Source of the DNA: Candidatus Kerfeldbacteria bacterium
GTDB taxonomy: Bacteria > Patescibacteriota > Patescibacteriia > UBA10025 > JAHIVO01
Assembly (NCBI GenBank): GCA_016214565.1
Contig: JACROE010000002.1
Span: forward strand, 1,048,007 to 1,112,006
Direction of reading: 5' to 3'
DNA: 64,000 nt
Numbering within the stretch: the stretch's first letter is position 1; the number at the start of each line of letters is the position of its first letter. The notes under the pieces are model-generated. The model did not search any database. It was not told the origin of the DNA and saw nothing but the letters and a program-made list of their open reading frames with translations. Positions 33,117-62,290 of this stretch are shown here, in pieces. Both the position numbers and the translations under genes were made by a program.

Positions 33117-33120
33117 ACAA

Positions 33121-41969: not shown

Positions 41970-42272
41970 TTGGATAATTTTGCTATGCAATTCCTGGATT
42001 ATATGCGCATCGCGGTCGGTGTCACTGTTGCCCTTGGACTGCCTGGTTTTTGCATTAGTTTAGCGCTATGGCCTCAGCAGCGGCGATGGTCATTTGAACG
42101 GATCATTATAAGTATCATCATATCAATTATTACGACCTCTGGTCTCACCTATGCCGCCAATCAGCTCGGCGCCCCATTCAGCCTGCTCACCATTGGCATT
42201 GTCATCAGTGTAACAAGTCTTATCAGTCTCATTATTTACTATTTTATTAAGTCAAAAAGTAATCCTGTATGA
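41970..42272 (+). CDS. small membrane protein, hypothetical
   Basis: 100 aa with 3 TM helices. Overlaps the start of the WbpB-like gene. Confidence 0.35.
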   Translation: MDNFAMQFLDYMRIAVGVTVALGLPGFCISLALWPQQRRWSFERIIISIIISIITTSGLTYAANQLGAPFSLLTIGIVISVTSLISLIIYYFIKSKSNPV

Positions 42273-43213
42273 AAAATTTTGCCATTACCGGCGTTGCTGG
42301 ATATATTGCGCCGCGCCATCTCAAAGCAATTAAGGAAACCGGTAATACTGTCGTAGCCGCTCTTGACCCGCACGACTCGGTTGGAATTCTCGATAGTTAC
42401 TTTCCTGAAGCGCGTTTTTTTACTGAATTCGAGCGATTTGATCGCCACGTTGATAAACTTCGCCGTCACAATAAGGAAAAAGAGGTGCACTATGTCAGTA
42501 TTTGCACGCCAAACTATTTACACGACGCTCACATGCGATTTGCGCTTCGCATCGGTGCTGATGCAATTTGTGAAAAACCCCTAGTGCTCAATCCATGGAA
42601 TATCGATGCCCTCCAGGAACTTGAAAAAGAATACGGGAAAAAAATATATACGGTTCTCCAACTACGGTTACACCCAAAACTTGTCGAGCTAAAGAAAAAA
42701 TTAGCCGACGATACAAAGCGGCGCCACCAGGTTAGTTTGACTTATATTACCTCCCGCGGCTCCTGGTACCTTTCATCATGGAAAGGATCGTTGGAAAAAT
42801 CAGGCGGACTAGCCACAAACATTGGCATACACTTTTTCGACTTACTCCTATGGCTCTTTGGTCCCGCCATCCGGAATGATGTTCACGTCAATGATGAAAA
42901 AAGGGTTAGTGGATTTCTCGAACTTAAAAATGCAGATGTCCAATGGTATCTCTCAATTGAGAGTGAAGACTTGCCAAAAGAAGCCGGGGACAAAAAGACG
43001 TTTCGTTCCATGACGCTGGATGGTAATGAAATAGAATTTTCTGATGGCTTTACTGACCTTCACACGCTTGTTTACAAAGATATTTTAGAAGGTGGCGGTT
43101 TTGGAACCGCTGATGCGCGCGATTCGATCCAGTTGGCTCATGATATCCGCCATGCCACTCCAAAAGCCTCTGCAGAGCTGATTCACCCTCTTGCCAGCCA
43201 CTTCGCTAAATAG
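42269..43213 (+). CDS. UDP-N-acetyl-2-amino-2-deoxy-glucuronate 3-dehydrogenase-like oxidoreductase (WbpB/WlbA family, Gfo/Idh/MocA)
   Basis: 314 aa. I recall WbpB/WlbA as carrying these motifs: MKNFAITGVAGYIAPRH...SICTPNYLH...ICEKPLV...LTYITSRGSWYLSSWKG...ATNIGIHFFD...EFSDGFTDLHT. Confidence 0.7.
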   Translation: MKNFAITGVAGYIAPRHLKAIKETGNTVVAALDPHDSVGILDSYFPEARFFTEFERFDRHVDKLRRHNKEKEVHYVSICTPNYLHDAHMRFALRIGADAICEKPLVLNPWNIDALQELEKEYGKKIYTVLQLRLHPKLVELKKKLADDTKRRHQVSLTYITSRGSWYLSSWKGSLEKSGGLATNIGIHFFDLLLWLFGPAIRNDVHVNDEKRVSGFLELKNADVQWYLSIESEDLPKEAGDKKTFRSMTLDGNEIEFSDGFTDLHTLVYKDILEGGGFGTADARDSIQLAHDIRHATPKASAELIHPLASHFAK

Positions 43214-43349
43214 CATTTTCTAACTTACCCAGCTACGTCGCTAACGGCTCAAAGTTTAGATTTTGAAATATTGGAGAAATTTGTTATAATATTGCAGCAT
43301 TCGGCAACTTGTTAAGTAATTTTTGATACGTAAAATTACAGATAAAACT

Positions 43350-43925
43350 ATGCCCACTGACTACTTTGCCCACGAATCGAGCTATATCGACGAAGGTGCC
43401 AAAATCGGAACCGAAACTAAGATTTGGCATTTTTGCCACATTATGTCTGGCGCCATAATCGGGGCTCACTGTTCACTGGGGCAGAACGTAAATGTCGCCG
43501 GCGGAGCAGTGGTAGGTAATCACGTGAAGATCCAGAACAATGTTTCAATATATGACGGAGTTACTGTTGAAGACTATGTCTTTTGTGGGCCTTCAATGGT
43601 TTTTACGAATGACCCAACCCCGCGCGCAAAATTTCCGCTTGGTCGAACTAATTATAAAAAAACGATTTTAAAAGAAGGCTCAAGTATTGGTGCGAATGCA
43701 ACCATTGTGTGTGGCAACACCATTGGCAAATCTGCTTTTATTGGATCGGGTTCAGTAGTCACAAAAGACATCCCTGACTATGCTATTGCTTATGGCAACC
43801 CTGCTCGCGTTCATGGCTGGATATGTGAGTGCGGTAGTAAACTTGTTTTTGCGGATGAAAAAGCTATCTGTGCAAGATGTAGCAGTAATTACCTAAAAAA
43901 AGATGACCACGTAACTAAACAATAA
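43350..43925 (+). CDS. UDP-2-acetamido-3-amino-2,3-dideoxy-glucuronate N-acetyltransferase-like (WbpD/WlbB family, left-handed beta-helix)
   Basis: Hexapeptide-repeat acyltransferase. From memory WlbB/WbpD carries: IWHFCHIMSGAIIG...SLGQNV...KIQNNVSIYDGV...VFCGPSMVFTND...ANATIVCG. Start taken at ATG 43350, because the track's 43323 start is a TTG codon. Confidence 0.7.
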   Translation: MPTDYFAHESSYIDEGAKIGTETKIWHFCHIMSGAIIGAHCSLGQNVNVAGGAVVGNHVKIQNNVSIYDGVTVEDYVFCGPSMVFTNDPTPRAKFPLGRTNYKKTILKEGSSIGANATIVCGNTIGKSAFIGSGSVVTKDIPDYAIAYGNPARVHGWICECGSKLVFADEKAICARCSSNYLKKDDHVTKQ

Positions 43926-43933
43926 AAAATGTT

Positions 43934-45034
43934 ATGAAACTCGTCGACCTTCACCGCCAGTATACGTCAATTAAAAAACCGATTGATGCTGCAATTAAAC
44001 GAATCATCAATTCGACTGATTTTATTCTAGGGAAAGATGTTGATGAACTAGAACACGCTATCGCTAAATTCTGCAAGGTACCTTATGCAGTAGGACTTAA
44101 TTCTGGAACTGACGCACTCTTATTTGCTCTCCGAGCTCTCGGTATCAAACGAGGCGATGAAGTAATTACCACTCCCTTCACCTTTATCGCTACTGCGGAA
44201 ATGATTGCGCTTGAGGGAGCTCGACCAGTTTTTGCCGATATTGACCCTGCCACCTTTAATATTGACCCCAAAGAGATTGAAAAACATATTACTAAGCGCA
44301 CTAAGGCCATAATTCCAGTTCACCTTTACGGCCAGCCAGCTGCGATGCAGGCGATTATGAAAATAGCCCACAAACATAAGCTACCCGTTATCGAAGACGC
44401 CGCGCAGGCAATCGGCGCGAAGATAGCAAATCAGCCGGTATGCACCTTTGGTGAAGTGGGTTGTTTGTCTTTCTTTCCAGCAAAAAATTTAGGATGCTAC
44501 GGTGATGGTGGGATGCTTTTAACGCGCGACAAAAAAGTTGCTGATCGAGTCCGGATGATGCTCAATCACGGATCTCGCATCCGCTACCACCATGAATTTA
44601 TCGGCGATTCTTCGCGATTAGACAATCTTCAAGCGGCAATTCTGAATGCTAAACTCCCCTACTTAAATGGCTGGAACAAAAAAAGAGCTGCGGTTGCTCG
44701 TTTATATAATACCCTATTAAAATCACCAGTCATCACCCCGTATGTACCAAAAGGGTTCACTTCGGTCTTTCAGCAGTACACGATTCGCATCCCGAATCGG
44801 ACGGCGGTTCGTAAACGATTGGAGAAATTAGGGATACCCACTGCTATTCACTATCCCATCCCACTGCATCTCCAGCCGGCCATCAAAAAATTAAAACTTG
44901 GATACCGCCAAGGTGATTTTCCTCATTCGGAAAAAGCCAGCCGCGAAGTATTATCGCTTCCGATGTACCCAGAAATAACTAAATCTGAAATTATCACGGT
45001 AGCTCGCGCTATCAACCAAGCAGTACACGTATGA
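43934..45034 (+). CDS. DegT/DnrJ/EryC1-family PLP aminotransferase (WbpE/WlbC-like, UDP-3-keto-sugar aminotransferase)
   Basis: 366 aa with an AAT-fold sugar aminotransferase pattern (TTPFTFIATAE...IPVHLYGQPA...SFFPAKNLGCYGDGG). Confidence 0.8.
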   Translation: MKLVDLHRQYTSIKKPIDAAIKRIINSTDFILGKDVDELEHAIAKFCKVPYAVGLNSGTDALLFALRALGIKRGDEVITTPFTFIATAEMIALEGARPVFADIDPATFNIDPKEIEKHITKRTKAIIPVHLYGQPAAMQAIMKIAHKHKLPVIEDAAQAIGAKIANQPVCTFGEVGCLSFFPAKNLGCYGDGGMLLTRDKKVADRVRMMLNHGSRIRYHHEFIGDSSRLDNLQAAILNAKLPYLNGWNKKRAAVARLYNTLLKSPVITPYVPKGFTSVFQQYTIRIPNRTAVRKRLEKLGIPTAIHYPIPLHLQPAIKKLKLGYRQGDFPHSEKASREVLSLPMYPEITKSEIITVARAINQAVHV

Positions 45035-46014
45035 GCAAAGGCAAACTCAAGGTCGCCGTCATCGGCGTGGGAAACATGGGTCGCCACCACGCACGAAATT
45101 ATTATGAAATGAAAGAATGTAATCTGGTGGCGATCTGCGACATTGATCCAACAAAAGCAGAATTAGCCAAACAGTATAGCTGTGCTTTTTATACTGACTT
45201 TCGGCGTATGCTGAAAAATGAAAAAATTGACGCGATTTCCATTGCCGTTCCCACCAAACATCACTTTGCAATAGCAATGCACTGCATTAAAGACAGAAAG
45301 CATGTTCTCGTCGAAAAGCCAATTGCTGCTTCCGTTTCTGATGCGAGACGGATGATAGCTTTAGCTGCCAAAATGAAAGTAACGTTTACCGTTGGTCATA
45401 TTGAACGATTCAATCCTGGTGTACAAAAAATGCACGAGCTGATAAACCAAGGTAAGCTCGGCTCAATCATTTCCATAATTTCTAAGCGGGTCGGTCCATT
45501 CGCGCCGCGCATCAAAGATTCGGGTGTGTTGATTGATCTAGCAGTGCATGATATTGACATCATTGGCCACCTGCTTCATAAACTGCCGACCCATGTCACG
45601 GTAAATGGGGGCAAAGCCATTAATAAGAAAATTGATGACTTTGCGGAAATATTTCTTCGTTATGGAAACCAATCCGGATATATCCAAGTAAACTGGATCA
45701 CTCCGGTGATCATCCGAGAATTGCATGTTACGGGCACCAAGGGATACGCTCATCTAAACTACATTACCCAAGAATTAGGATTCTATAAATCACGTTACAA
45801 AGAACAGTTTAATAATTACGGAGATTTTGTTATTCAGTTCGGCAAATCACACCGTCTCAATGTACCAATCCAATCCCATGAGCCATTGCGCAGAGAATTG
45901 CAATCATTTTTAGCAAATATAACCCGCCACACACGACCCGTAGTCTCGGGACAAGATGGGCTCGAAGCTCTCCGCATTGCTCTTCGTGCATTACATACCA
46001 TCAAATATGCTTAA
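45031..46014 (+). CDS. Gfo/Idh/MocA-family NAD-dependent sugar oxidoreductase (second copy)
   Basis: KVAVIGVGNMGRHH Rossmann motif and EKP motif (VLVEKPIA). 327 aa. Confidence 0.75.
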   Translation: MSKGKLKVAVIGVGNMGRHHARNYYEMKECNLVAICDIDPTKAELAKQYSCAFYTDFRRMLKNEKIDAISIAVPTKHHFAIAMHCIKDRKHVLVEKPIAASVSDARRMIALAAKMKVTFTVGHIERFNPGVQKMHELINQGKLGSIISIISKRVGPFAPRIKDSGVLIDLAVHDIDIIGHLLHKLPTHVTVNGGKAINKKIDDFAEIFLRYGNQSGYIQVNWITPVIIRELHVTGTKGYAHLNYITQELGFYKSRYKEQFNNYGDFVIQFGKSHRLNVPIQSHEPLRRELQSFLANITRHTRPVVSGQDGLEALRIALRALHTIKYA

Positions 46015-46969
46015 CTTTCGAGGAAAAAATATTTTGATAACCGGTGGCGCTGGATTTATCGGTAGTCACTTAATTGATCAGTTAATAACCGAGCAGCCAC
46101 GAAACATCATCGTCGTAGACAATCTTTTTCTTGGCAAGCTGGCTAATTTGAAGGATGCTCAAAAGAATTTTCCTCGGCTTATCTTTTACCGTCATGACGC
46201 TTCAGATTACTCATTTATGAAGCGGCTGGTTGCCAAGCATCGGATTCATGTCATTTACAATCTCGCTACCAAGGCTCTCCCCTATTCTTTCACCGATCCC
46301 GAGGATGCATATCTGATAAACGTAAAACTTTCAACCACCTTATTGCGTCTTTTGCTCGATAAACAATACCAGACACTGATTCACTTTTCTTCGTCTGAAG
46401 CATACGGTTCCTCACTGACTTCATCAATGTCAGAACTGCATCCATTGGTCCCCCACACACCCTATGCCGCAGGCAAGGCCTCGGCTGACCTCCAAGTCAT
46501 GGCTTGGCGCCATTTCTTTAAGCTTGATATTGCCATTATTCGCCCTTTTAATAATTATGGCCCGCGGCAAAATGAAGGAATGTATGCCGGCGTCATCCCC
46601 ATTACCATTAAACGAATTATGAAAGGTCAGCCACCCATTCTCCAGGGTGACGGAAAGCAAACTAGAGATTTTATTTATGTGACGGATACGGCACGTGCGG
46701 CGATCGCAATCTACAAAAATCCACGTACCCGTGGCACTATTCTCAATATTGCAAGTGGTAAAGAATTATCAATCAAAAAAATTATTGCATCAATCTCAAA
46801 GTTAATGAATTACCACGGTCCAGTTATTAAAAAACCCAGTCGTACTGCTGATGTCCGCCGACATCTCGCCAATGTGTCAATGGCAAAAAAAATTCTTCAT
46901 TTTAAACAGTCGATTTCATTTACCACCGGAATTGCTAAAACGATCGAATGGTATAAGCATAGCGTATAA
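46007..46969 (+). CDS. NAD-dependent nucleotide-sugar epimerase/dehydratase (extended SDR)
   Basis: ILITGGAGFIGSHL and catalytic YAAGKASAD. The ATG at 46007 lies in an ATGCTTAA overlap with the upstream stop. The track start 45956 runs through the upstream gene. Confidence 0.75.
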   Translation: MLNFRGKNILITGGAGFIGSHLIDQLITEQPRNIIVVDNLFLGKLANLKDAQKNFPRLIFYRHDASDYSFMKRLVAKHRIHVIYNLATKALPYSFTDPEDAYLINVKLSTTLLRLLLDKQYQTLIHFSSSEAYGSSLTSSMSELHPLVPHTPYAAGKASADLQVMAWRHFFKLDIAIIRPFNNYGPRQNEGMYAGVIPITIKRIMKGQPPILQGDGKQTRDFIYVTDTARAAIAIYKNPRTRGTILNIASGKELSIKKIIASISKLMNYHGPVIKKPSRTADVRRHLANVSMAKKILHFKQSISFTTGIAKTIEWYKHSV

Positions 46970-46972
46970 TGT

Positions 46973-48091
46973 ATGATTAAACTCATTATCCCCGAAGTTT
47001 CACTGAAAGCCGTAGCGCGAGATTACGAAAAAATATTTAAGTCCGGCATGCTAACGCAGGGTCCGTACGTGAAACTATTTGAAAAAAAAGTTGCGCGCAT
47101 GATTGGTGTACGCTACGCGTTTGCCACTACCTCGGCTACAACCGCGCTACATCTTTCCTTAGCGGCGCTTGGCATCGGCCCAGGTGATGAGGTCTTGGTG
47201 GCTGATTTTACCTTTCCCGCAACAGCAAACGTTGTGGTTCAATTAGGGGCAAAACCGGTTCTCGTTGATGTCCGAACCGATGACTTCACCATCGACATAC
47301 ATGACCTCAAAAGTAAAATAACACGCCGCACAAAAGCAATTATGCCAGTGGATACGTTCGGCTATCCAGCAAATATGCCAGCAATTATCAACGTTGCCAA
47401 ACGCCATAAACTGCATGTCATCGAAGATGCGGCGTGCTCGATCGGCGCTCGCATCGCCGGCCGGTATTGCGGGAGCTTCCCTACCATGGGTTGCTTTAGC
47501 TTTCACCCCCGCAAATCAATCACCACAGGCGAGGGTGGCATGCTGACGACTAATGACAGCACCTTAGCAAAAACGATTTCAGTGTTACGAAACCACGGAG
47601 GCGTTTTCAATGAATCTCGAGGTTACTATGACTACGTCGAAGCTGGCTTTAATTACCGCATGTCCGAAATTCAGGCAGCCCTTGGTCTCAGCCAATTTGC
47701 GCAAATTAAAACAATTATTAAAAACCGTCGGCATGTAGCGGCCATTTACAATAAAGCATTTGCTCATCACCCTTACATTACTCCTCCGACTGAGCAAAAG
47801 GGACGTCTGCACACATACCAATCATACGTCGTGAAATTACATCCAGACATACCCCGCGATGCACTCATGAAGAAAATGCGCAACCGTGGCATTGAAGTTA
47901 CGCTCGGCACTTACTCACTTCACATGCAGCCATTCTTTAGAAAAAAATACGGCTACCGACCTGGCGCATTACCAAATTCACAAGCGGCATTCGAACACGC
48001 CATGACCCTACCTCTTCACGCACGCATGACCCAAGCACAGCTCAGCAGTGTCATCAAAACGCTGAATAAAACTATTGAAGAATACGTATGA
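46973..48091 (+). CDS. DegT-family PLP-dependent sugar aminotransferase (second copy)
   Basis: 372 aa with the DegT/ArnB/PseC-like pattern ([13 protein letters not shown]...DTFGYPANM...[14 protein letters not shown]). Confidence 0.8.
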
Positions 48092-48618
48092 ACCAACGCC
48101 CGACCCGAACCAGTCACGGGACTGGTGAATTTAGTCAAGACCAGTTTGCTCATTACGGGTCCAATGTTGTCATTGAGCCAGGAGTATTAGTATTCCATCC
48201 TGAAAATATTTTTTTGGATAATGGAGTGTACATTGGACATAACACAATTCTCAAAGGGTACCACCGCAACACTATGCGTATCGGTGCCGGCACCTGGATT
48301 GGGCAGCAGTGCTTTTTTCATAGCGCGGGTGGTATTTCCATCGGTGAAGACGTCGGCATCGGACCAGGAGTAAAAATACTTACCTCAACCCATGATATTG
48401 CAGAGTTAGATCGACCTATCATCCAGGCCACCCAGCTGATTACAAAACCAGTCACGATCAAGGAGTGGAGCGATATTGGCGTAAACGCCATAATTATGCC
48501 TGGCGTTACTATTGGGCGAGGCGCCCAAATTGGTGCAGGCGCGGTCGTTACCAAAGATGTACCTGATTTTGAAGTCTGGGGAGGGGTGCCCGCAAAATTA
48601 ATTAGAAAAAGAAAATAA
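48088..48618 (+). CDS. hexapeptide-repeat sugar N/O-acetyltransferase (LbH)
   Basis: 176 aa with left-handed beta-helix repeats (IGHNTILKG...[10 protein letters not shown]...[11 protein letters not shown]). Confidence 0.7.
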
Positions 48619-48626
48619 CAATCCTT

Positions 48627-49748
48627 ATGCAAACCTGTACTCGTTGTATCTACGATGATCATATACCGAATATTTCCTTTGACCACGAAGGTATTTGTAA
48701 TTACTGTCGTCAAATTGAGGTCCTAGAGCACGATTATCCAAATGGGAGGGTCGGTGAGGAAAAATTTTCTCAGATGGTAGAGGAAATCAAACGCGCGGGA
48801 AAAGGAAAAAAATATGATTGCATTATCGGTGTCAGCGGCGGATGCGATTCATCCTACCTCGTATATATTGCGAAGAAATATGGTCTGCGACCTTTAGCGG
48901 CTCATTTTGATAATACTTGGAATTCATCAATCGCAACTGATAACATCAAAAAGGTTCTAAAGAAACTCGATGTCGACTTATTTACCTATGTAATTGATAA
49001 TGATGAATTCAATGATCTAGCACATTCATTTTTAGACGCTTCAGTCCCCGAAATTGACTCGCTGTCCGATGTGGCACTGACGACCGTTCACTATATGGCG
49101 GCAGCAAAGTACAATATTAAATATATCCTTGATGGTCATAATTTTCGTACCGAGGGCATGACGCCGCTTGGGTGGTTTTACTTTGATGGCAAATACGTCT
49201 CCGATATTCATAAAAAATTTGGAAAGTTGCCAATGAAAACCTATCCTAACCTTTGGTTCCATAAATGGATGAAGTGGTTACTTATTAATCGACCTAAGCG
49301 GATCCGTCCGCTGTATTACCTCGACTATGATAAGGAAAAAGTGAAAGAATTCCTGACCAAAGAATTTGACTGGGAATGGTACCATGGACACCATATGGAA
49401 AATAAATACACACTTTTTTGTGATAATTACATAATGCCTCGAAAATTCAAAATCGACCTACGCTACGTCGAATTTTCAGCATTGATTCGTTCAGGACAAA
49501 TGACACGCGAACAGGCATTACTAGACATTCAAACCCCTCCGCCGGTGAGCGAAGAATTAATTACCGAGGTAAAAAAACGACTAAAGATTTCTGACAGTGA
49601 ATTTGACGCTATTATGTCAAAACCACTGAAAACAGCAAAAGACTACAAAACATACCATCAGCTATTTCGTTGGCTGAGACCATTTTTTTGGCTAATGCTC
49701 CAGGCCGACTTAATCCCCAAAAGCTTCTACATTAAATACACCAAATAA
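48627..49748 (+). CDS. N-acetyl-sugar amidotransferase (WbpG/WbuX/PseA family, PP-loop ATP pyrophosphatase) - acetamidino group formation
   Basis: N-terminal Cys cluster (CTRCIY...CNYC) and PP-loop SGGCDSS. 373 aa. Immediately followed by HisH- and HisF-like genes, as in characterised wbuXYZ and wbpG-hisH2-hisF2 loci. Confidence 0.75.
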   Translation: MQTCTRCIYDDHIPNISFDHEGICNYCRQIEVLEHDYPNGRVGEEKFSQMVEEIKRAGKGKKYDCIIGVSGGCDSSYLVYIAKKYGLRPLAAHFDNTWNSSIATDNIKKVLKKLDVDLFTYVIDNDEFNDLAHSFLDASVPEIDSLSDVALTTVHYMAAAKYNIKYILDGHNFRTEGMTPLGWFYFDGKYVSDIHKKFGKLPMKTYPNLWFHKWMKWLLINRPKRIRPLYYLDYDKEKVKEFLTKEFDWEWYHGHHMENKYTLFCDNYIMPRKFKIDLRYVEFSALIRSGQMTREQALLDIQTPPPVSEELITEVKKRLKISDSEFDAIMSKPLKTAKDYKTYHQLFRWLRPFFWLMLQADLIPKSFYIKYTK

Positions 49749-49752
49749 TCGC

Positions 49753-50388
49753 ATGCCGGGTATTGTCATCATTGATTATGACATGGGTAATGTCGGATCA
49801 ATCCGAAACATGTTCAAGAAAATTGGACACGACGTTACAATTTCCGCAAAATCAGAAGATATTCTCAATGCTACCGGCCTCATATTACCAGGCGTCGGCG
49901 CTTTTGATACTGGTATGGCTAGCCTTGCTGCTCGAAATATAATACCGCTGCTCAAAAAGCGAGCCCTTGACGATCATATTCCGGTCTTGGGCATTTGTCT
50001 TGGCATGCAACTATTAACTGACAGTAGTGAAGAAGGCTCTCTCCCCGGGCTCGGTTTAGTACCTGGCAAAACAATTAAATTCAATTTTACGAGTACTGAA
50101 AATAAATCACTCCGCATCCCCCACATGGGATGGAATACGACTACAGTGCAAAAAAAGAACCGGCTATTTACCGGGCTCGAAGCAGAATCCCGTTTTTACT
50201 TTGTCCACTCATACCACGTGGTCTGTGCCAACCAGGAAGATATATTGACCACGACACCGTACGGTTTTGAATTTTGTTCCTCATTACAAAAAAATAATAT
50301 ATATGGGGTACAATTTCACCCAGAAAAAAGTCACAAATTTGGGATGCAACTTCTTTCTAACTTTTTTAGTATTACTCAATCATTGTAA
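49753..50388 (+). CDS. HisH-like class I glutamine amidotransferase subunit (WbuY-type)
   Basis: 211 aa. IVIIDYDMGNVGSI, catalytic Cys in GICLGMQLL, and a His/Glu tail. Confidence 0.8.
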   Translation: MPGIVIIDYDMGNVGSIRNMFKKIGHDVTISAKSEDILNATGLILPGVGAFDTGMASLAARNIIPLLKKRALDDHIPVLGICLGMQLLTDSSEEGSLPGLGLVPGKTIKFNFTSTENKSLRIPHMGWNTTTVQKKNRLFTGLEAESRFYFVHSYHVVCANQEDILTTTPYGFEFCSSLQKNNIYGVQFHPEKSHKFGMQLLSNFFSITQSL

Positions 50389-50424
50389 AGACATTTCATA
50401 TCTTACCAGAAATAATTAGTTAAT

Positions 50425-51189
50425 ATGCTGCAAACCCGCGCCATCCCCTGCCTACTCAAAAAGGGTTCTTCGCTTGTAAAAACAAAACAATTTGGCGAAC
50501 TGCAATATATTGGAGATCCAGTCAATACCATCCAAATTTTCAATAATCTTGCTGCCGATGAAATTATTGTTCTGGATATAACTGCATCGGTAGAACGGAG
50601 ATCGCCTGACTTAGAATTTATCAGCCAATTGACAGATGAATGCTTTATGCCATTTGCATATGGTGGCGGTGTTCGTACCATTGATGACATGAAGCGAATT
50701 TTTAGCTTAGGGGTGGAAAAAATTATTATCTGCAGTTACGCGGTCGAATCGCCGCAGTTTATTAAAGACGCCGCCTTACAGTTTGGTAACCAAAGTATAA
50801 TTGTATCAATCGATGTCAAAAAAAATTTTCTTGGTAGATATCACGTATATACCCATTCTGCTACGATAGATACGAAACGTAATCCGGTTGATTTTGCGCA
50901 AGAGATGGAACGTTCAGGAGCTGGAGAAATTTTCTTGAATTCAATCAATAATGATGGCATGATGCATGGTTTTGACCTTGAGCTTATCAATGACATTTCA
51001 AAAGTAATAACGATACCACTGATTGCCTGTGGCGGAGCGGGCACGCTCGCTCACATCAAACAAGCTATTGACGCTGGCGCAACGGCAGTTGCTGCCGGTA
51101 GTTTATTTGTATATCAAAATGGTAACCGTGCCGTGCTTATTAATTACCCAGAACGTCAGGAATTAGATGCATTATTTCAGAATCAATGA
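50425..51189 (+). CDS. HisF-like cyclase subunit (WbuZ-type, TIM barrel)
   Basis: 254 aa with HisA/HisF (beta/alpha)8 signatures (AIPCLLLK..., DGMMHGFDLELI, GGAGT). Confidence 0.8.
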   Translation: MLQTRAIPCLLKKGSSLVKTKQFGELQYIGDPVNTIQIFNNLAADEIIVLDITASVERRSPDLEFISQLTDECFMPFAYGGGVRTIDDMKRIFSLGVEKIIICSYAVESPQFIKDAALQFGNQSIIVSIDVKKNFLGRYHVYTHSATIDTKRNPVDFAQEMERSGAGEIFLNSINNDGMMHGFDLELINDISKVITIPLIACGGAGTLAHIKQAIDAGATAVAAGSLFVYQNGNRAVLINYPERQELDALFQNQ

Positions 51190-52193
51190 AAATTTTACAT
51201 GCACCATTTAATGTAGCCGGACAGCCAGCAATAATAGCCGAGGCTCAACGTGCGCTGGGGCATACGAGTGATGTTTTGGTTTTTAATGATAATTATTTAC
51301 ACTATCATTATGACAAAAACCTTGCTGTTGCAGGTCGATCTACAATCCATAAAACCATTATTTATTTGACAAATCTCTTTGCTGCGCTTGCGCATTACGA
51401 TGTATTTCACTTTCATTTTGGTGGGAGTTTGCTCCCCTGGAACCTTGACCTTCAACTTGAACGTTTGCTTAGAAAGAAAGTGTTAATGCACTATTGGGGA
51501 TCAGATGTTATTCAAACAGACATTGCTCGCCACTACACTCTCTGGGGCCCAGAGTTACTAACAAAAATTTATCCTAATCGTAACGACGATTTACAAAGAA
51601 AAAAACTTAATAAAGTAAAACAAATTGTTAATAAAACTATTGTTGGCGACTTCTCATTATTAGCGTACTCACCTGACAGCATGGTCATTCGTCAGGCATT
51701 TAACTTATCCAACGTTCCTTTTGTCGGGGTGCTGTCAAAAAAGAACCGAATTAACATTGTTCATGCCCCAACTCATCGAGGAATCAAGGGTACCTCACAA
51801 ATAAATGCAGCGATGAAAATAATCTGCCAACGGTACCCCGTCGACTATCAGCTTATTGAACATAGGCCTCATAGCGAAGCCATGGCTTTATATGCCAAGG
51901 CGGATATTATAGTTGATGACCTGCTGCACGGACCGTATGGCATACTTGCGATTGAGTGCATGGCATTGGGCAAACCAGTTTTGGCGCGTATTGATAAAAA
52001 GCTAGTCCATTACTATCCGAATCTTCCTATTGTAAATTCAAACCCGGACACAATAGTCGACGACATAATACGCCTTATCACCAATTGGGATCTAAGAAAA
52101 AGTCTTGGAATAGCCGGACGAGAGTACGTCAAAAGACACCATAATGCGCACGCTATCGCCCAGCAACTAGTAGACTTGTATAAATCAATCTGA
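51186..52193 (+). CDS. putative GT-B (GT4-like) glycosyltransferase
   Basis: 335 aa. C-terminal GT4-type motif HGPYGILAIECMALGKPVLA (E-x7-E-like). Confidence 0.5.
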   Translation: MKILHAPFNVAGQPAIIAEAQRALGHTSDVLVFNDNYLHYHYDKNLAVAGRSTIHKTIIYLTNLFAALAHYDVFHFHFGGSLLPWNLDLQLERLLRKKVLMHYWGSDVIQTDIARHYTLWGPELLTKIYPNRNDDLQRKKLNKVKQIVNKTIVGDFSLLAYSPDSMVIRQAFNLSNVPFVGVLSKKNRINIVHAPTHRGIKGTSQINAAMKIICQRYPVDYQLIEHRPHSEAMALYAKADIIVDDLLHGPYGILAIECMALGKPVLARIDKKLVHYYPNLPIVNSNPDTIVDDIIRLITNWDLRKSLGIAGREYVKRHHNAHAIAQQLVDLYKSI

Positions 52194-53660
52194 GGGACCA
52201 ATAACAGAATTCTTACTCTTGCCTAATAAGCTTTTAAAAAAAGTGATTTCAGTTTTTGTGATTGCTTGCGTCATATAAATACCAGCACCATAGAATATGG
52301 TACTTAATACAACCGCAAGCACCAAGCTAAGTAATGAGTATGGTTGGAAAATAAGCAACATCAAGCCGAATAACCCACTAAGTGCCACGCTTTTTCCAAT
52401 AATGACCCAGTCAAAAGTGAAAGAAAGAAGTCGCTTTCCCTGAAAGTACAAAATAAAAAATACGATAGCGAAGGCAACTAATGTAGTCACCGCAGCTGCC
52501 CGAATCCCGTAGCGTGGCACCAACAGAAGATTTAACCCAATATTTATAACACCGGCAATAACCCATGCTTGGGCGATCTGACGTGTTTTTTTAAATAATG
52601 AGTATATTTCACTTATGATTGAGGTAAGACCGTAAAACAAAATTGCGATGGCGACATAGGGAGTAATCATATAGGCCTTTTCAGCGATTTCTGGTGTTGA
52701 TAGGACCAAAAGCAAAGGTTTTGCTAGCACTGAAAGACCAACAACTAATGGAATCCCAATAACCAAAAAATACTTAAATGAATAATGTATAAATGTACGA
52801 ACTTGATCTTCTCGCTTATTATCAAATGCGTCAGCCAAAAAAGGACTTAAAATAAACGCAAAAGGCTCTACCAACATAGATATCATGGTTCCAAGTGTAT
52901 AAGCTGGTGTATAAATACCGACCGCGCCAAGACCGAGGTAATAAGCAATAACATAACGATCACTTAATTGTACTGCCTTACCTGAAATATTTGACGGTAC
53001 TGAGGGTGTACTAAAATGCATATATTCGCGAATATGCCCAAACCGTGGGATTCCAATGCCAATATCTCTTACAATAAAATACGCGATAACAAAAAACTTT
53101 AAAAGTTTTAGTAAAAATAATCCAAATAGAATATCATAAATGTGATAACCACCGGTAACCATAAAGTAAATCAATATTAGTCCTCCATAACTTTCCGATA
53201 GAAAAAGAACTGAATATTTGACTGTTTGTTTAAAAGTACGAAAATACGCAAGCCCAAGTTGAATAATGGTAAATAAGATTAATGTTGCGCATAACAAATA
53301 TAAAAGTGATAGGCTCCCATCAAAAAAACGATCAGCCAAAAAGCTACCAAAGGTGACAATTAGCAAAACGGCGAGAACGGCTAATCCGAGCATAATTGCT
53401 AAAATGGAATAAAAACCTTCCCTGATTTTTTGTCTATCTCGTTCAGCGGCTAAAAAACGTGTCAATGCGCCGGTCAATCCAAGCGATATAATAGGAAATA
53501 AAAACTCCATACTTACTGTAAATTGAGACCACATACCATATTCAACAACACCAAGTATTTTTGTAATTAGGGGTAAAATAAAAATCGCCCGCAATCGAAT
53601 AAGTACTTGCAGTATGCCAACCAGGCTTAATTGTTTCGTAAATGATGAATACGTCGACAT
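52185..53660 (-). CDS. wzx: polysaccharide flippase (Wzx, MOP superfamily)
   Basis: 491 aa with ~14 TM helices in a Polysacc_synt-like topology. It sits in a GT-rich cluster. Confidence 0.65.
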   Translation of the reverse strand: MSTYSSFTKQLSLVGILQVLIRLRAIFILPLITKILGVVEYGMWSQFTVSMEFLFPIISLGLTGALTRFLAAERDRQKIREGFYSILAIMLGLAVLAVLLIVTFGSFLADRFFDGSLSLLYLLCATLILFTIIQLGLAYFRTFKQTVKYSVLFLSESYGGLILIYFMVTGGYHIYDILFGLFLLKLLKFFVIAYFIVRDIGIGIPRFGHIREYMHFSTPSVPSNISGKAVQLSDRYVIAYYLGLGAVGIYTPAYTLGTMISMLVEPFAFILSPFLADAFDNKREDQVRTFIHYSFKYFLVIGIPLVVGLSVLAKPLLLVLSTPEIAEKAYMITPYVAIAILFYGLTSIISEIYSLFKKTRQIAQAWVIAGVINIGLNLLLVPRYGIRAAAVTTLVAFAIVFFILYFQGKRLLSFTFDWVIIGKSVALSGLFGLMLLIFQPYSLLSLVLAVVLSTIFYGAGIYMTQAITKTEITFFKSLLGKSKNSVIGPSD

Positions 53661-55039: not shown

Positions 55040-56195
55040 TTTTTTCAGCCGCCTTTTTCCAGCTATACTGTCTTTCAACAAGGTGTCTACCACGTTGACC
55101 CATCGCATTCCATTCATTGCGTCGGTTAATCATTTGAAGTAATGCATTTTTCAAAGCATTAACCGAATCATCCCCTGCAACAACCCCAGTATCGTATTTT
55201 TTTACTAGTTCACCTACGCCGGAAATACAAGTTGTTAATACGGGCTTTCCAGACGCTAGATACTCAAACAGCTTCAATGGTGATAGCCCAATTGACTCAT
55301 TACGCATCAAAGTAAACGGCGCCAAACAAACGTCAAAAGAAGCTACATACCGCGGGACATCATCATACGAGACCATACCGACAAAATTGTAAGAGCCCTT
55401 TGGTAAATACTGAGATGCAATTTCCTCCCATTGTGCTCGTGCAGGGCCGTCTCCCACAACGGCTAAAGACATATTACTACTCCAAGATTGTGCCAATGCA
55501 CGTATCATCTCCCCCATTCCCTGCCAAGGAGCACAATGTCCTACAAAACCAAACTTTATTTTTTCGCTCGATACCTTAAACTGGCTTGAAGTAATTGGCT
55601 TAAAGTGGTCTGTATTCACTCCATTTGGGACAACATAATAATTGTCGAGTATGTTGTATTCACGCTTAATCACTTCAGTTAATTTGGCGGTAACACATAT
55701 AAGAGCACAAGCTTTCTTAAAAAAATACCGTTCAATAAAAATATGTAGTCGAAGGGTAGCTGTAACAAAACGATTTTTACTAAAACGAGTCGCACCATGC
55801 TGAGCAAGTCCATTGACTTCGATAATAAACTTTTTTCGAAGGATGATATAAAAAATGGGGGCAAAACTCAGATAGCGCGATCGAATATAAATAATATCAG
55901 GCTTAAAAATGACGGCGTGCCAAACGCAAAATAAGTCATAAATGATTGACGAAAAAATGAACTTAAATTTACGTAACACGGAGAATGCCGTAATGCGACG
56001 TGTGCCGGGGACAAATACTACATGGGTATAATCGAGCGTCTTTTTAAATTGTTCATAAGCATTTCTGTCAGGCTGAGGAAATAATAACCGTACTGAATCG
56101 GTTAATGTATGTAAGTGATGCCGCCATACTTCAATCGTATGGGTTGAACCGGCATCTTCACCGAGATACACAAATGCATTAACTAAAATTCTCAT
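55011..56195 (-). CDS. glycosyltransferase family 4
   Basis: 394 aa. GT4 motif IGLSPLKLFEYLASGKPVLTT. Confidence 0.8.
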   Translation of the reverse strand: MRILVNAFVYLGEDAGSTHTIEVWRHHLHTLTDSVRLLFPQPDRNAYEQFKKTLDYTHVVFVPGTRRITAFSVLRKFKFIFSSIIYDLFCVWHAVIFKPDIIYIRSRYLSFAPIFYIILRKKFIIEVNGLAQHGATRFSKNRFVTATLRLHIFIERYFFKKACALICVTAKLTEVIKREYNILDNYYVVPNGVNTDHFKPITSSQFKVSSEKIKFGFVGHCAPWQGMGEMIRALAQSWSSNMSLAVVGDGPARAQWEEIASQYLPKGSYNFVGMVSYDDVPRYVASFDVCLAPFTLMRNESIGLSPLKLFEYLASGKPVLTTCISGVGELVKKYDTGVVAGDDSVNALKNALLQMINRRNEWNAMGQRGRHLVERQYSWKKAAEKTIQILYKYQ

Positions 56196-57811
56196 AATTG
56201 TGAAGCGACAAATAAGGAATAATCACCTTCTGAAAAAACTGGGGTAAGTTCCTTTGATCTGACAAGCTGGGAGTAGCGACCATACGCTCCATCAATTAAA
56301 TAAATTACGCCAGCTGTATCTATTATTTCTCGATTTTCCGAGTCTTCAAAATCAGTACTTTGAATTGGCGTATACATTAATGAGTTTAAGTCGTTTTCAC
56401 TAGCTACATAAATGCTATAAAAACTGATCGGATGAGAAATGAGAATGTCTTCAGGTTGTACATGAGTTGAAAGGTAGTTCACCAGCCCGACCGGTGGTTT
56501 TGTTATGACATTGCCACTAAAACCGATTATATTTGGGATTGAGGTTATAAATATTGCGCAGACCAATAGCGGAATAACTGATCTAAAAAGACGATAGTGC
56601 TGCATTTGATAAATCCCAAATACGGCAATAACTGGCCCAAGCACGGAAATATACAACATCGCCCGTGGCGAATTGCTTGATGGCTCAATCCCAAAATACG
56701 GACCAATCATGACAATAAACACGGAGAGAGAAATGGTCAAAGTAAACGGCAAAAAACGCGCATCAAGCAATTTCTTGGTAAATATCATCCCTAATATTGA
56801 GATTACACCAAGTAGCGCGATAATCGGGTTTACGCCAAGTCGCGATGCACCATTATCGAGAAAATATCGTGATAGATTTTGGTCAACTTTTTGGGTAAAC
56901 TGATCATACCGCCAATATTGTTCTGTAGTAACGACATGAAATATGTATGAATGAAAAAGAAACAATAAAACCGATATTCCAATAATAAAAGCAATAAGTG
57001 TTTGAAGCCGATGAATACCGAAGCGTTTATTAAGGATGTCACAGATTAGAACAAAAATTGAAAGACAAAAAGATAGTGCAAAAGGTATTTTAACGTAATT
57101 AAGCCAAAATAAATCACCATTAATTATAACTGTATTGTAATAACTTATAATTGAGGCAATGATCAGAGCCCCAGCGATTGTAATAAGATGTGAATATTTC
57201 TTTTGCCATATAAGAACGGGGATAATAAGCACAATCACTGAAAGTGCCATCGAACTGGTCAAGACATTAGTCAGTAATACGCAGCCTAAAATAATACCGC
57301 CCAAAACAATGCGTAGCCACGTGCGAAAATCAGAAATAAACTCAACGTAGACATATGAAGTAAATAATACAATAGAAAGATTCTCAGGTAAAAAAAGTGA
57401 AAAACGGCGTCCAACATAATAAGTTAAAACAGAAAATAGCACAACAATAAACCCCAAAATATTTGAAGTAAAGAGTTGTTTCCCAATCAAAAAAGAAACG
57501 GAACACAAAAGTAATAAAATAATGAAGCTGACAATATTTGCCAGCACCACATAATCAGTTACGCCGGTCATTTTTTGAATAACCGCTGAAAATGAGTACA
57601 ATAATGGTGGATACACAGAACGAATATTTCCCCAAAAATATGTATCGTGTATGAAAGTTTCTTCCGTACTGATCTTTTTAACTATGGTAAGGTGATATAA
57701 TGAGTCAAAACTTCCAGCCACATCGTTGTTTACAAAAAATAAACTAACAACCAGTATCGTAAGACTCGCCGCGATGGTGACAATAATAATTTTTTTTAAG
57801 TTAGCTCTCAT
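56192..57811 (-). CDS. large polytopic membrane protein (candidate Wzy-type polymerase or GT-C glycosyltransferase)
   Basis: 539 aa with ~14 TM helices and a C-terminal ~100-aa soluble domain. Very AT-rich. No unambiguous motif. Confidence 0.45.
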   Translation of the reverse strand: MRANLKKIIIVTIAASLTILVVSLFFVNNDVAGSFDSLYHLTIVKKISTEETFIHDTYFWGNIRSVYPPLLYSFSAVIQKMTGVTDYVVLANIVSFIILLLLCSVSFLIGKQLFTSNILGFIVVLFSVLTYYVGRRFSLFLPENLSIVLFTSYVYVEFISDFRTWLRIVLGGIILGCVLLTNVLTSSMALSVIVLIIPVLIWQKKYSHLITIAGALIIASIISYYNTVIINGDLFWLNYVKIPFALSFCLSIFVLICDILNKRFGIHRLQTLIAFIIGISVLLFLFHSYIFHVVTTEQYWRYDQFTQKVDQNLSRYFLDNGASRLGVNPIIALLGVISILGMIFTKKLLDARFLPFTLTISLSVFIVMIGPYFGIEPSSNSPRAMLYISVLGPVIAVFGIYQMQHYRLFRSVIPLLVCAIFITSIPNIIGFSGNVITKPPVGLVNYLSTHVQPEDILISHPISFYSIYVASENDLNSLMYTPIQSTDFEDSENREIIDTAGVIYLIDGAYGRYSQLVRSKELTPVFSEGDYSLFVASQL

Positions 57812-59691: not shown

Positions 59692-59719
59692 GAGGGTTTA
59701 ATAGAATAGATAATCTGGC

Positions 59720-61962: not shown

Positions 61963-62290
61963 CCTGCTTCTTCGCGGCTGCTAATGCTTTTTTTCTAACC
62001 AGCTGGGTAATTTCCCGCTCCATAAACTCAAGTTTGACGTACAAGCGAAACACTCCATAAAATAATGCAACAACTGACATGTATACGAGCGCGTCAGCTC
62101 CACGTCCGACACCAACTGACCGAGCTATAATTCCGCTCGCATGCGGCCACCATACAAAAAAGGCAACGGCGCCCCAAAGAAACAGCCAAATAAATAAGGC
62201 GAGATACGTGATTGAACCGCTGCGAAAACGCAAGTACGCCCGTGAGGCAGCAAATAAAACAAATAGTGTAATAAGTATCTTAATAATCAT
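61943..62290 (-). CDS. small membrane protein, DUF2304-like (partner of GT2; possible lipid-linked sugar flippase role)
   Basis: 115 aa with 3 TM helices. In the conserved pairing directly downstream of a Dpm1/GtrB-like GT2. I recall similarity to the DUF2304 family but cannot verify it here. Confidence 0.5.
   Translation of the reverse strand: MIIKILITLFVLFAASRAYLRFRSGSITYLALFIWLFLWGAVAFFVWWPHASGIIARSVGVGRGADALVYMSVVALFYGVFRLYVKLEFMEREITQLVRKKALAAAKKQDEHRTH

Follow-up and report, generated by a model that had tools for sequence, protein, structure and literature searches.

A Candidatus Kerfeldbacteria MAG, from a bacterium of the candidate phyla radiation (CPR) with a tiny genome, contains a tightly packed operon for heavily N-acetylated amino sugars, one of them with an acetamidino group. 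The window analyzed is a 64,000-nt stretch of a 1.1 Mb contig, and positions 41985-52193 within it are best explained (at a probability of roughly 0.55 for the scheme as a whole) as an 11-gene operon that makes, starting with UDP-GlcNAc, the UDP-linked poly-N-acetylated amino sugars of a Wzx-dependent cell-surface glycan. In this scheme proteins P1-P3 would make GlcNAc3NAcA, P5-P7 would make a 4-amino sugar, and P8-P10 would amidinate the N-acetyl group installed by P7. The pathway is of an already known kind, and the gene families of the P1-P10 region carry existing NCBI annotation.

P1-P10 are encoded by ten co-directional plus-strand ORFs (42269-51189), all present where the initial annotation had placed them, with the spacing of adjacent genes ranging from a 4-8 nt overlap to a 36 nt gap; the sole looser junction is a gap of 109-136 nt between genes 1 and 2. 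Gene-caller starts for P2 and P5 are 43350 and 46007, in place of 43323 and 45956 as first annotated. A small membrane protein of 95 aa, with three predicted TM segments and no Pfam match, precedes them (41985..42272, plus strand), and its stop overlaps the P1 start by 4 nt. The base composition of the operon is native, 42-51 kb having the same GC and GC3 as the housekeeping genes, and the wzx/glycosyltransferase segment at 51-58 kb is AT-richer (GC 0.375 versus 0.43-0.45 elsewhere), as had been anticipated. The accompanying proposal of close likeness to proteobacterial enzymes and horizontal acquisition did not hold, given this composition, a Patescibacteria relative (L002) with the same 12-gene order, and archaeal proteins as the nearest named relatives of the WbuX homologue P8 (61-65% identity). 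The nearest relatives are Patescibacteria and Archaea, not Proteobacteria; the CPR plus Archaea clade has a bootstrap of only 93/200. Because the host is a CPR bacterium, monoderm-like and without LPS, the "O-antigen" frame first applied to the locus is also not the right one.

The family assignments of P1-P10 are all far beyond chance as sequence matches, and PDB matches and curated models showed the initial calls of WbpB/D/E-like enzymes, a WbuX, HisH and HisF2 module and a WbpA/WecC-like dehydrogenase to be right. P1, P2 and P3 align over their full length to WbpB, WlbB and WbpE. P1 (42269..43213, plus strand), a WbpB/WlbA-type UDP-GlcNAcA 3-dehydrogenase of the Gfo/Idh/MocA family, matches PDB 3oa2 (WbpB) with 346 bits (E 2e-102, residues 1-310), the next unrelated Gfo match having at most 37 bits. 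P2 (43350..43925, plus strand), a WlbB/WbpD-type 3-N-acetyltransferase of the LbH class, matches 3mqg (WlbB) with 193 bits. P3 (43934..45034, plus strand), a PLP-dependent DegT protein and WbpE-type C3 aminotransferase, matches 3nyu/3nu7 (WbpE) with 331-332 bits and groups in the tree with DegTs adjoining Gfo and LbH genes. Strong homology suggests that a UDP-HexNAc 6-dehydrogenase, then P1, P3 and P2, would produce UDP-GlcNAc3NAcA (for the five-enzyme WbpA/B/E/D/I pathway, see PMC10622841).

The 6-dehydrogenase at 62958..64000 was correctly recognized as WbpA/WecC-like (it is also TviB-like), but its gene is a minus-strand one that the end of the window truncates, with about 100 N-terminal residues of the full-length 444 aa lying beyond. 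Its best models are UDP-HexNAc dehydrogenases (UDP-ManNAc DH, TviB, WecC), not Ugd, the top curated one being archaeal. It sits 12 kb off, belongs to a divergent operon that also holds two further SDRs, and may serve a different sugar. Neither the window nor the adjoining 3.8 kb contains a WbpI-type 2-epimerase, so that GlcNAc3NAcA, the first predicted output, would stay gluco-configured.

P8 (48627..49748, plus strand) is a WbuX-type PP-loop amidotransferase, with 256 bits against TIGR03573 (WbuX; cutoff 203) and the motifs of the family (PMC10607449), a PP-loop SGGCDS at residues 70-75 and a Zn tetracysteine at residues 4-27. P9 (49753..50388, plus strand) is a HisH-type class-I glutaminase, with 231 bits against TIGR01855 (HisH; cutoff 105) and an intact triad (Cys nucleophile within GICLG, His and Glu within HPE). 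P10 (50425..51189, plus strand), an AglZ/HisF2-type (beta/alpha)8 barrel, exceeds the cutoff of NF038364 (AglZ/HisF2; 348 bits versus 310), falls under that of TIGR00735 (HisF; 217 versus 295), and lies just under that of the WbuZ model (288.5 versus 299.7). Alignment to 1thf revealed that the cyclase Asp11 is replaced by Leu, as in 57 of 58 relatives; the ammonia-gate residues R5, E46, K99 and E167, as well as D130, are kept and are invariant in the 58 relatives. A histidine-pathway HisF was rejected on the failed HisF cutoff and the loss of Asp11, which bears out the earlier view of HisH and HisF as non-histidine paralogues; likewise, Pfam or NCBIfam scans of window ORFs no shorter than 100 aa revealed no other his gene, the ORFs outside these scans being nested overlaps of larger genes. 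By strong homology, P9 would hydrolyze glutamine, ammonia would travel through the P10 barrel, and P8, as a PP-loop ATP pyrophosphatase, would activate an acetamido carbonyl for conversion by ammonia to the acetamidino group. A physical interaction of HisF2 with WbpG was demonstrated by pull-down in P. aeruginosa (PMC11445079).

WbuX homologues target the 3-N-acetyl group in P. aeruginosa O5 (with WbpA-E alone) and the 2-N-acetyl group in E. coli O145 (PMC10607449), and thus the family is not tied to C4. The initial proposal amounts to P8-P10 acting on the WbpB/E/D product, with UDP-GlcNAc3NAmA or its manno counterpart as the outcome (P. aeruginosa O5 and the Methanococcus N-glycan being precedents), and to an unrelated second N-acetylated amino-deoxy sugar made by P4-P7. 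The strong P1-P3 homologues, the presence of a WbpA-like dehydrogenase, the location of all genes in one operon, and the precedent of WbpG with HisH2/HisF2 performing exactly this reaction in O5 (PMC10607449; PMC11445079) favor this proposal, but P8 is parted from P1-P3 by the four second-set genes and directly abuts P7, WbpI is absent, and a scan of GTDB species genomes with P8 peptide patterns returned no Pseudomonas aeruginosa locus. Also against it are 49 loci of the closest P8 relatives, chosen for having 6 kb or more of upstream sequence before the WbuX gene: an SDR plus P6-type (C4-class) aminotransferase core adjoins WbuX relatives in 37, without the 3-dehydrogenase trio in 26, whereas the trio occurs in 11, all of which hold the core as well, and never without it (0/49). 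From these counts, that is, from gene context, it is more likely that the amidino group is placed on the second-set (P7) N-acetyl group, at C4, and not at C3 of the uronic acid, and the O5-like proposal is considered unlikely. A P7-type acetyltransferase directly adjoins the amidotransferase genes, just before hisH, in 15 of the 49 loci. The second set itself (45031-48618) is present as annotated, comprising Gfo/Idh/MocA, extended SDR, DegT and LbH proteins; a second sugar from it is possible, but a single pathway in which it continues that of P1-P3 would fit the comparative data equally well, or better.

P5 (46007..46969, plus strand) is an extended SDR whose catalytic motif reads S-S-E; it is predicted to oxidize C4, a 4,6-dehydratase being the most likely activity. 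In a signature comparison (table from PMC12820599), S-[ST]-S-E marks all WbuX-linked SDRs, S-S-A the epimerase-like SDRs of the same loci, and T-D-E one RmlB-like SDR. P5 is under every curated model cutoff and in the PDB matches 4-epimerases best (166-146 bits), then dehydratases (142-125) and UXS (92), so that a single Glu carries the dehydratase assignment; a plain 4-epimerase was rejected because this Glu is present where epimerases have Ala. P6 (46973..48091, plus strand) is a DegT aminotransferase, with perosamine synthase and ArnB among its nearest solved relatives that have a named function. It falls with the SDR-coupled (C4-class) aminotransferases, apart from the WbpE-type and all Gfo-coupled DegTs in 100/100 bootstraps, and clusters with DegTs from loci without Gfo, where the SDR is the only possible keto donor. 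P7 (48088..48618, plus strand) is an LbH acetyltransferase 57-60% identical to LbH genes directly upstream of hisH-hisF-wbuX in many phyla, and its likeness to O-acetyltransferases (maltose/galactoside type) is as great as that to N-acetyltransferases. Gene context suggests that P5 would form a 4-keto intermediate, P6 would aminate C4, and P7 would acetylate that amine, the probable target of amidination. The second output would be a 4-acetamidino-4-deoxy (probably 4,6-dideoxy) HexNAc, possibly with a 3-acetamido group too.

P4 (45031..46014, plus strand) is a second Gfo/Idh/MocA dehydrogenase, of the archaeal or GnnA-like UDP-GlcNAc 3-dehydrogenase type; its identity to P1 is only 23% across 103 aa, and it matches PDB 7bvj with 101 bits. 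The glmU and nagB genes inserted in the L002 operon indicate UDP-GlcNAc as the precursor. From gene context P4 may admit non-uronic UDP-GlcNAc to C3 amination via P3 and P2; this role of P4 is a guess, and P6 and P7 could be its partners instead. In such an archaeal-type C3 route, P4, P6 and P7 would make UDP-GlcNAc3NAc in parallel to the WbpB route, P5 would epimerize or dehydrate, and P8-P10 would amidinate the 3-N-acetyl group. Consistent with it are the best model of P4, the archaeal UDP-GlcNAc 3-dehydrogenase NF040723 (338 bits, under the 450-bit cutoff), the archaeal gene order and closest relatives of P8-P10, an archaeal UDP-GlcNAc 4-epimerase as the top PDB match of P5, and 12 betaproteobacterial loci in which a P4-like Gfo gene immediately precedes a P5-type SDR. 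The separation of P6 from Gfo-coupled DegTs and the Glu of P5 nevertheless make the route quite improbable, as do the archaeal loci L003 and L004, in which a P5-type SDR (and in L004 a P6-type DegT) lies beside wbuX-hisH-hisF with no Gfo gene.

An oxidative decarboxylation of UDP-GlcNAc3NAcA by P5, ArnA-like, would join the two sets into a single pathway, P6, P7 and P8-P10 then giving a 2,3-diacetamido-4-acetamidino-2,3,4-trideoxy-pentose, the amidino counterpart of the triacetamido-arabinose found in Psychrobacter cryohalolentis. Triacetamido-L-arabinose occurs in nature (PMC8040287), the window holds the 6-dehydrogenase and WbpB/E/D enzymes to supply the precursor, and the commonest related module has SDRs with the complete ArnA/UXS signature (STSE, RWxY, QIRAW), then ArnB-like DegTs. 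P5, however, has neither the Arg signature nor the five-residue decarboxylase insertion, has QTRDF like RmlB/GalE, and scores 92 bits with UXS against 142 with RmlB, and this outcome appears very improbable. A nonulosonic acid route was ruled out by the absence of NeuB and CMP-transferase from the 25 commonest families in 124 neighboring ORFs.

For the preferred scheme, assembly and export would involve P11, the downstream GT4 glycosyltransferases, Wzx and an 11-TM protein. P11 (51186..52193, plus strand) is a GT1-like glycosyltransferase with a 4 nt overlap with P10; since its homologues come after the WbuX gene in related loci (12 of 68), it is a candidate for transferring the modified sugar. 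Beyond it are a Wzx-type flippase with about 13 predicted hydrophobic segments (52185..53660, minus strand), two GT4 glycosyltransferases (53810-55039, plus; 55011-56195, minus), and a candidate Wzy-like polymerase of 539 aa for which 11 TM segments are predicted and no family matched (56192..57811, minus strand). A methyltransferase, three GT4 proteins and a DUF2304 plus GT2 pair, polyprenyl-phosphate-sugar-synthase-like, follow (57801..62961, minus strand).

Among known systems, the B-band wbp pathway of P. aeruginosa O5 has in common with the Kerfeldbacteria operon the 6-dehydrogenase, WbpB-type 3-dehydrogenase, WbpE aminotransferase and WbpD/WlbB acetyltransferase (PMC10622841), and an amidotransferase of the PP-loop type that has its own HisH and HisF paralogues (PMC11445079). 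The Kerfeldbacteria operon differs in lacking WbpI, in four extra sugar-modifying genes that separate the WbpE homologue from the amidotransferase, in an X-H-F rather than H-F-X gene order, and in a gene context that does not indicate the C3 N-acetyl group as amidation target. The WbuX/WbuY/WbuZ proteins of E. coli O145 (L-FucNAm; TIGR03573/TIGR03572) are similar in that P8 passes the WbuX cutoff, the order is X-Y-Z, and the PP-loop and tetracysteine motif are common to both (PMC10607449); but FnlABC-type L-FucNAc genes are lacking in Kerfeldbacteria, P10 is under the WbuZ cutoff yet over that of AglZ/HisF2, and at the DNA level no E. coli genome showed detectable similarity.

The 4-keto/C4-aminotransferase routes PglF-E-D, LegB-C-H and ArnA-ArnB follow the same logic as P5 (SDR with catalytic Glu), P6 (DegT) and P7 (LbH), although all scores are under the curated cutoffs for LegB, LegC, PseC and ArnB, P7 is without the NeuD/PglD architecture, and the Kerfeldbacteria set is coupled to an amidotransferase with no downstream NeuB or CMP-transferase. 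Archaeal AglX/AglY/AglZ, the acetamidino module of the Methanococcus maripaludis N-glycan (named in NCBIfam NF038364), resemble the operon in the AglZ/HisF2 score of P10, the nearest named relatives of P8, and the top curated models of P4 and the 6-dehydrogenase; the X-H-F order is common only to archaeal L003 and L004 and to L002. The host here is, however, bacterial, and also holds a bacterial WbpB-type 3-dehydrogenase. Finally, although its host is proteobacterial and only one aminotransferase is listed for it, the Sphingomonas "cluster B" locus for a cell-associated polysaccharide likewise brings together a nucleotide-sugar dehydrogenase, MviM/Gfo dehydrogenase, PLP aminotransferase, WxcM-type acetyltransferase, SDR, WbuX, AglZ/HisF2 and HisH (PMC11340318).

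All ten open reading frames that the initial annotation had described at 42269-51189 (P1-P10 in gene order) were found, all on the plus strand. Both these ORFs and the gene-family calls made for the region (WbpB/WbpD/WbpE-like enzymes, a WbuX-HisH-HisF module and a 6-dehydrogenase-like gene) were borne out by matches to solved structures and curated models and by motifs. Counting the 95-aa membrane ORF that precedes them and the GT1-like gene that follows (51186-52193), they form a block of 11-12 genes in which neighbors overlap by 4-8 nt or stand 3-36 nt apart, the P1-P2 gap being the sole exception. P1-P3 are WbpB-, WlbB/WbpD- and WbpE-like; P4 is a second Gfo/Idh/MocA protein, P5 an extended SDR, P6 a DegT aminotransferase 37% identical to P3, P7 an LbH acetyltransferase, P8 a WbuX amidotransferase, P9 HisH, and P10 AglZ/HisF2. 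NCBI proteins MBI5038093-MBI5038119 correspond to this region of the Kerfeldbacteria MAG, and six window proteins also have exact-sequence matches on Logan contigs. A scan of 41.7-54 kb gave 35 promoter-like sites, which is not above the 30.8 expected from shuffles, with the best site at 43263-43290 in the P1-P2 gap; terminator-like sites in the same scan numbered 21 versus 11.4 in shuffles (sd 3.8).

The window's content is bacterial (secA, a mur/ftsW/mraY cluster, a type IV pilus cluster, rmlACDB, CTP synthase and SAH hydrolase), and no tRNA or Rfam family was detected in the 64 kb. Within the mur/ftsW cluster, a 713-aa fusion (11029-13170, minus strand) joins an N-terminal alpha/beta-hydrolase (Hydrolase_4/Abhydrolase) to a complete MurD-type Mur ligase. 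The minus-strand operon at 32391-36813 reads rmlA-rmlC-rmlD, an HD-domain gene (TIGR00295), rmlB and NUDIX, and its RmlB, at 384 aa, has about 45 residues more than the 321-position model.

P9 scores 231.4 bits against TIGR01855 (cutoff 105.4) and carries the Cys-His-Glu catalytic triad motifs GICLG and HPE, as do 58 of 58 relatives. P10 exceeds the cutoff of the AglZ/HisF2 model NF038364 (348 bits, cutoff 310) and falls below that of the HisF model TIGR00735 (217.4 bits, cutoff 294.55). The catalytic residues of the HisF cyclase are Asp11 and Asp130 in Thermotoga maritima numbering. Alignment of P10 to T. maritima HisF (PDB 1thf) revealed Leu in place of the catalytic Asp at position 11, with Asp130 kept and the ammonia-tunnel gate residues R5, E46, K99 and E167 conserved. 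Leu11 is present in 57 of 58 P10 homologues that adjoin WbuX genes in many phyla, and the four gate residues and Asp130 are invariant in all 58. The hisH and wbuX genes are adjacent in the window, and in 56-58 of 68 related loci they are no more than 8 kb apart. True histidine biosynthesis was rejected on the HisF score, Leu11 and the lack of other his genes in the window; together with the retained gate residues, these findings give good support to the earlier proposal that the pair channels ammonia. Direct interaction of HisF2 with WbpG was shown experimentally in P. aeruginosa (PMC11445079).

The NCBI name for 50425-51189 in this MAG is "imidazole glycerol phosphate synthase subunit HisF". 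Standard pipelines call P9 and P10 HisH and HisF, so that a metabolic reconstruction of a CPR MAG would wrongly count them toward histidine biosynthesis; Leu in place of Asp11 readily tells the HisF2 paralogue apart. In Devosia algicola, a cultured strain, the Gfo homologue and the HisF2 homologue are both broken into two ORFs (L063:1720-2678 and 9277-9988, L063 being the related locus), which suggests frameshifts or pseudogenization of the module.

P8 scores 255.9 bits against TIGR03573 (cutoff 203.2), with model positions 1-343 of 344 covered. The PP-loop SGGxDS and the tetracysteine CxxC...[GN]xCxxC are motifs of N-acetyl sugar amidotransferases, the latter described as a zinc motif for the Legionella enzyme (PMC10607449). 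They appear in P8 as SGGCDS (residues 70-75; kept in 68/68 relatives) and CTRC...GICNYC (residues 4-27; kept in 65/68). P8 is a predicted enzyme for ATP-dependent conversion of an acetamido to an acetamidino group on a sugar, and characterized family members act at N3 (WbpG) or N2 (WbuX) (PMC10607449). A blastn search of all complete E. coli genomes, for comparison with wbuXYZ of E. coli O145, gave no match. In at least a dozen related loci the WbuX gene is directly followed by a conserved ORF, about 430 aa long, that is missing from the window (e.g., L023:11130-12443, L024:11130-12407, L018:11119-12405, L006:11124-12392 and L048:11149-12435); its copies are 28-53% identical to that of L023, which has no Pfam match.

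The initial annotation had taken the product to be a 3-acetamidino uronic acid as in P. aeruginosa O5, with P8-P10 amidinating the C3 N-acetyl. The WbpB, WbpE and WbpD homologues of that pathway are present and full length, P1 matching PDB 3oa2 at 346 bits (other Gfo/Idh/MocA structures reach at most 37 bits), P3 matching 3nyu at 332 bits and P2 matching 3mqg at 193 bits. A minus-strand gene at the window end encodes a UDP-HexNAc-type dehydrogenase, 444 aa at full length as read from the sister contig L075, which is identical across the window end. It scores 414 bits against TIGR03026, and its best specific models are UDP-ManNAc dehydrogenase (302 bits) and TviB (231 bits), all below their cutoffs. 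This gene sits 12 kb from P1-P10, in another operon with two SDRs. Beyond position 64000, the minus-strand operon (L075:195-4696) contains the N-terminal part of the dehydrogenase, then a GalE-like SDR (303 aa), a UXS-like SDR (344 aa), a GT2 and a GtrA-like gene; the UXS-like SDR keeps PRANYDEGKR and has SSAVMYG, without the catalytic Glu, in its catalytic motif. Since the operon continues with GalE-like and Glu-less UXS-like SDRs, the dehydrogenase may serve a further sugar. A WbpI-type UDP-sugar 2-epimerase belongs to the O5 UDP-ManNAc3N(Ac/Am)A pathway (PMC10622841), and no Epimerase_2/WbpI match was found among scanned window ORFs of at least 100 aa or in the 3.8 kb past the window end.

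Gene context was evaluated in 73 loci with P8 relatives, taken from species-representative genomes, on which homologues of every window protein were mapped; counts refer to the 49 loci in which 6 kb or more of sequence precedes the WbuX gene. An SDR and a P6-like DegT lie beside the amidotransferase genes in 37 of these, and a P7-like LbH (57-60% identity across phyla) stands directly before hisH in 15. The trio of 3-dehydrogenase, LbH and DegT occurs in only 11 loci, in each case alongside the SDR/DegT core and never by itself. Context thus argues against amidination of a uronic acid at C3 and, with no WbpI found in the scanned ORFs either, the O5-type product is not supported and appears improbable. 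In the archaeal loci L003 and L004 a P5-type SDR adjoins wbuX-hisH-hisF, with a P6-type DegT in L004 and no Gfo gene in either.

A neighbor-joining tree of all DegTs from the related loci placed P3 with DegTs adjoining Gfo and LbH genes, and P6 with those for which only an SDR could supply the keto group; the split between the two groups was recovered in 100 of 100 bootstraps. Extended SDRs acting on NDP-sugars oxidize C4, and the SDR-coupled P6 is therefore most likely a C4 aminotransferase, whose amine P7 would acetylate. Since the P5-P7-type set is so closely and repeatedly coupled with the amidotransferase, the N-acetyl that this set installs is the probable target of amidination. The best solved matches of P6 are PDB 9bgp and 8vr3/8vr5; the papers searched contain no mention of 8VR3, 8VR5, 8VR6, 9BGP or 9BGR. 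A nonulosonic acid pathway (Leg5Am7Ac or Pse5Ac7Am) was rejected, as NeuB, the CMP-transferase and the hydrolyzing 2-epimerase were not found in the window; in 124 ORFs neighboring WbuX relatives, the 25 most frequent families include none of them either.

The reaction of P5 was considered from its catalytic motif and nearest structures. Matches in the PDB are to an archaeal 4-epimerase (166 bits), other epimerases and Pal (145-148), RmlB enzymes (125-142) and UXS (92). All SDRs linked to WbuX relatives have S-[ST]-S-E at the catalytic Ser/Thr; in the same loci, epimerase-like SDRs have S-S-A (SSSASVYG) and one RmlB-like SDR has T-D-E. The motif in P5 is SSSEAYG, versus SSSAVYG in its best PDB match, 6dnt, and this Glu, where S/T-x-A would be expected, disfavors a plain GalE/WbpP-type 4-epimerase. 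The ArnA/UXS decarboxylase signature combines T/S-S-E with an Arg three residues before the catalytic Tyr (PMC12820599). P5 has the Glu (SSSE), but His in place of that Arg and no 5-residue insertion, so that an ArnA-like decarboxylase is also disfavored. Glu without the Arg signature is common to P5 and the SDRs of L002 (a Patescibacteria locus), the archaeal loci and twelve betaproteobacterial loci. P5 scores 195 bits against the RmlB-type model TIGR01181 (cutoff 365) and 179 bits against LegB (cutoff 475), and its S-S-E, compared with T-D-E of RmlB, contains the Glu base and lacks the Asp. GMD-type dehydratases likewise have the Glu base without the Asp. A 4,6-dehydratase of T/S-S-E type is the favored, though loosely held, prediction for P5.

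The commonest WbuX-linked SDRs ("type A"; L012:5832-6785 and about 25 other related loci, e.g., L036, L040, L047 and L069) have the full decarboxylase signature, with STSE, the 5-residue insertion GEARWxYAVSK, and QIRAW, and are followed by an ArnB-like DegT, LbH, HisH, HisF2 and WbuX. Type-A modules probably make a 4-amino-4-deoxy pentose, and the decarboxylase signature, taken with the ArnB-like DegT and the amidotransferase genes, predicts a 4-acetamidino-4-deoxy pentose as their product. To our knowledge, such a sugar has not been described.

Entry into the pathway would involve P4, which is essentially unrelated to P1 (23% identity over 103 aa). Its best-scoring model by far is the archaeal UDP-GlcNAc 3-dehydrogenase model NF040723 (338 bits, E 6e-101, a full-length alignment that does not reach the cutoff of 450), and a function related to that of archaeal/GnnA-type UDP-GlcNAc 3-dehydrogenases is therefore likely. 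In betaproteobacterial loci a P4-like Gfo gene, with its own LbH and DegT, lies directly upstream of the P5-type SDR; several have a second trio further upstream, led by a WbpB-like or other Gfo gene, and in L024 and L025 that upstream stretch includes a 6-dehydrogenase gene as well. This pattern suggests two C3-amination entries, one on the uronic acid and the other on UDP-GlcNAc, feeding the C4 branch. P4 would then be the remnant of the UDP-GlcNAc entry, sharing P3 and P2, which is the weakest step of the model. L002 has an alternative-type glmU and nagB (L002:2758-4721) between its WbpB and WlbB homologues, at the position of the window's only sizeable intergenic gap, the one holding the best promoter-like site. 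Insertion of these two genes in the L002 operon supports UDP-GlcNAc as the starting point.

Horizontal acquisition, also proposed initially on the resemblance to proteobacterial O-antigen enzymes, is not supported by base composition. The three sugar sub-modules at 42-51 kb have GC of 0.40-0.45 and GC3 of 0.39-0.44, against 0.43-0.45 and 0.39-0.42 in housekeeping genes, and codon-usage distances are not above those of the rml or pilus genes. Only 51186-58000 is AT-rich (GC 0.375, GC3 0.32); it encodes Wzx, the GT1-like protein, two GT4 enzymes and a candidate Wzy, an 11-TM protein with no family match. The variable portion of polysaccharide loci typically shows this kind of composition. L002 has the same gene order from the WbpB homologue to Wzx at 47-75% protein identity, and the nearest named relatives of P8 are archaeal (61-65%), followed by diverse bacteria (at most 58-60%). 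Native composition, synteny with L002 and archaeal nearest relatives together give no sign of recent transfer from Proteobacteria. The order wbuX-hisH-hisF is found only in the window, L002 and two archaeal loci, and hisH-hisF-wbuX in 52 others. In a neighbor-joining tree of WbuX, CPR sequences are nested among archaeal ones; as the CPR plus Archaea split has only 93 of 200 bootstraps, an older link between CPR and Archaea can be offered only as a lead.

In the furthest-reaching interpretation, the window would hold one version of a widespread, uncharacterized module for a chemically undescribed class of sugars, a reading given a probability of roughly one in four. The module would comprise a Glu-bearing SDR, a C4-class DegT, a P7-type LbH, HisH, HisF2 and WbuX, often preceded by the trio. 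Its commonest, ArnA-like version would yield the 4-acetamidino-4-deoxy pentose, and the CPR/archaeal version 2,3-diacetamido-4-acetamidino-2,3,4,6-tetradeoxyhexose, with the CPR version sharing ancestry with archaeal N-glycan modification genes. WbuX relatives that track a C4-amination set offer a concrete place to seek the amidino group in many uncultured phyla.

More than 30 kb of this 1.1-Mb CPR genome is given to a surface glycan (rml genes, sugar operon, at least 10 glycosyltransferases, Wzx and GT-C enzymes), and an elaborate glycan with a predicted positively charged amidino group is a plausible host-contact determinant for an episymbiotic lineage. Two GT-C/PMT_2 membrane glycosyltransferases lie by the type IV pilus genes (15141-16925, plus strand) and by the sugar operon (40206-41876, minus strand), the latter near a 570-aa single-TM protein without family match (38455-40167, minus strand); these proteins could serve extracytoplasmic glycosylation of pilins or wall polymers. 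At 61943-62961 (minus strand) a 224-aa GT2 is paired with a DUF2304 small membrane protein, a pairing typical of polyprenyl-phosphate-sugar synthases, and could be the source of lipid-linked donors for the GT-C enzymes.

The locus is a genuine, well-organized nucleotide-sugar operon of known kind in an under-studied lineage. Its families are already curated and it is otherwise a normal polysaccharide gene cluster; what is new is only the prediction, from sequence and gene context, that a widespread module makes a chemically undescribed 4-acetamidino sugar.
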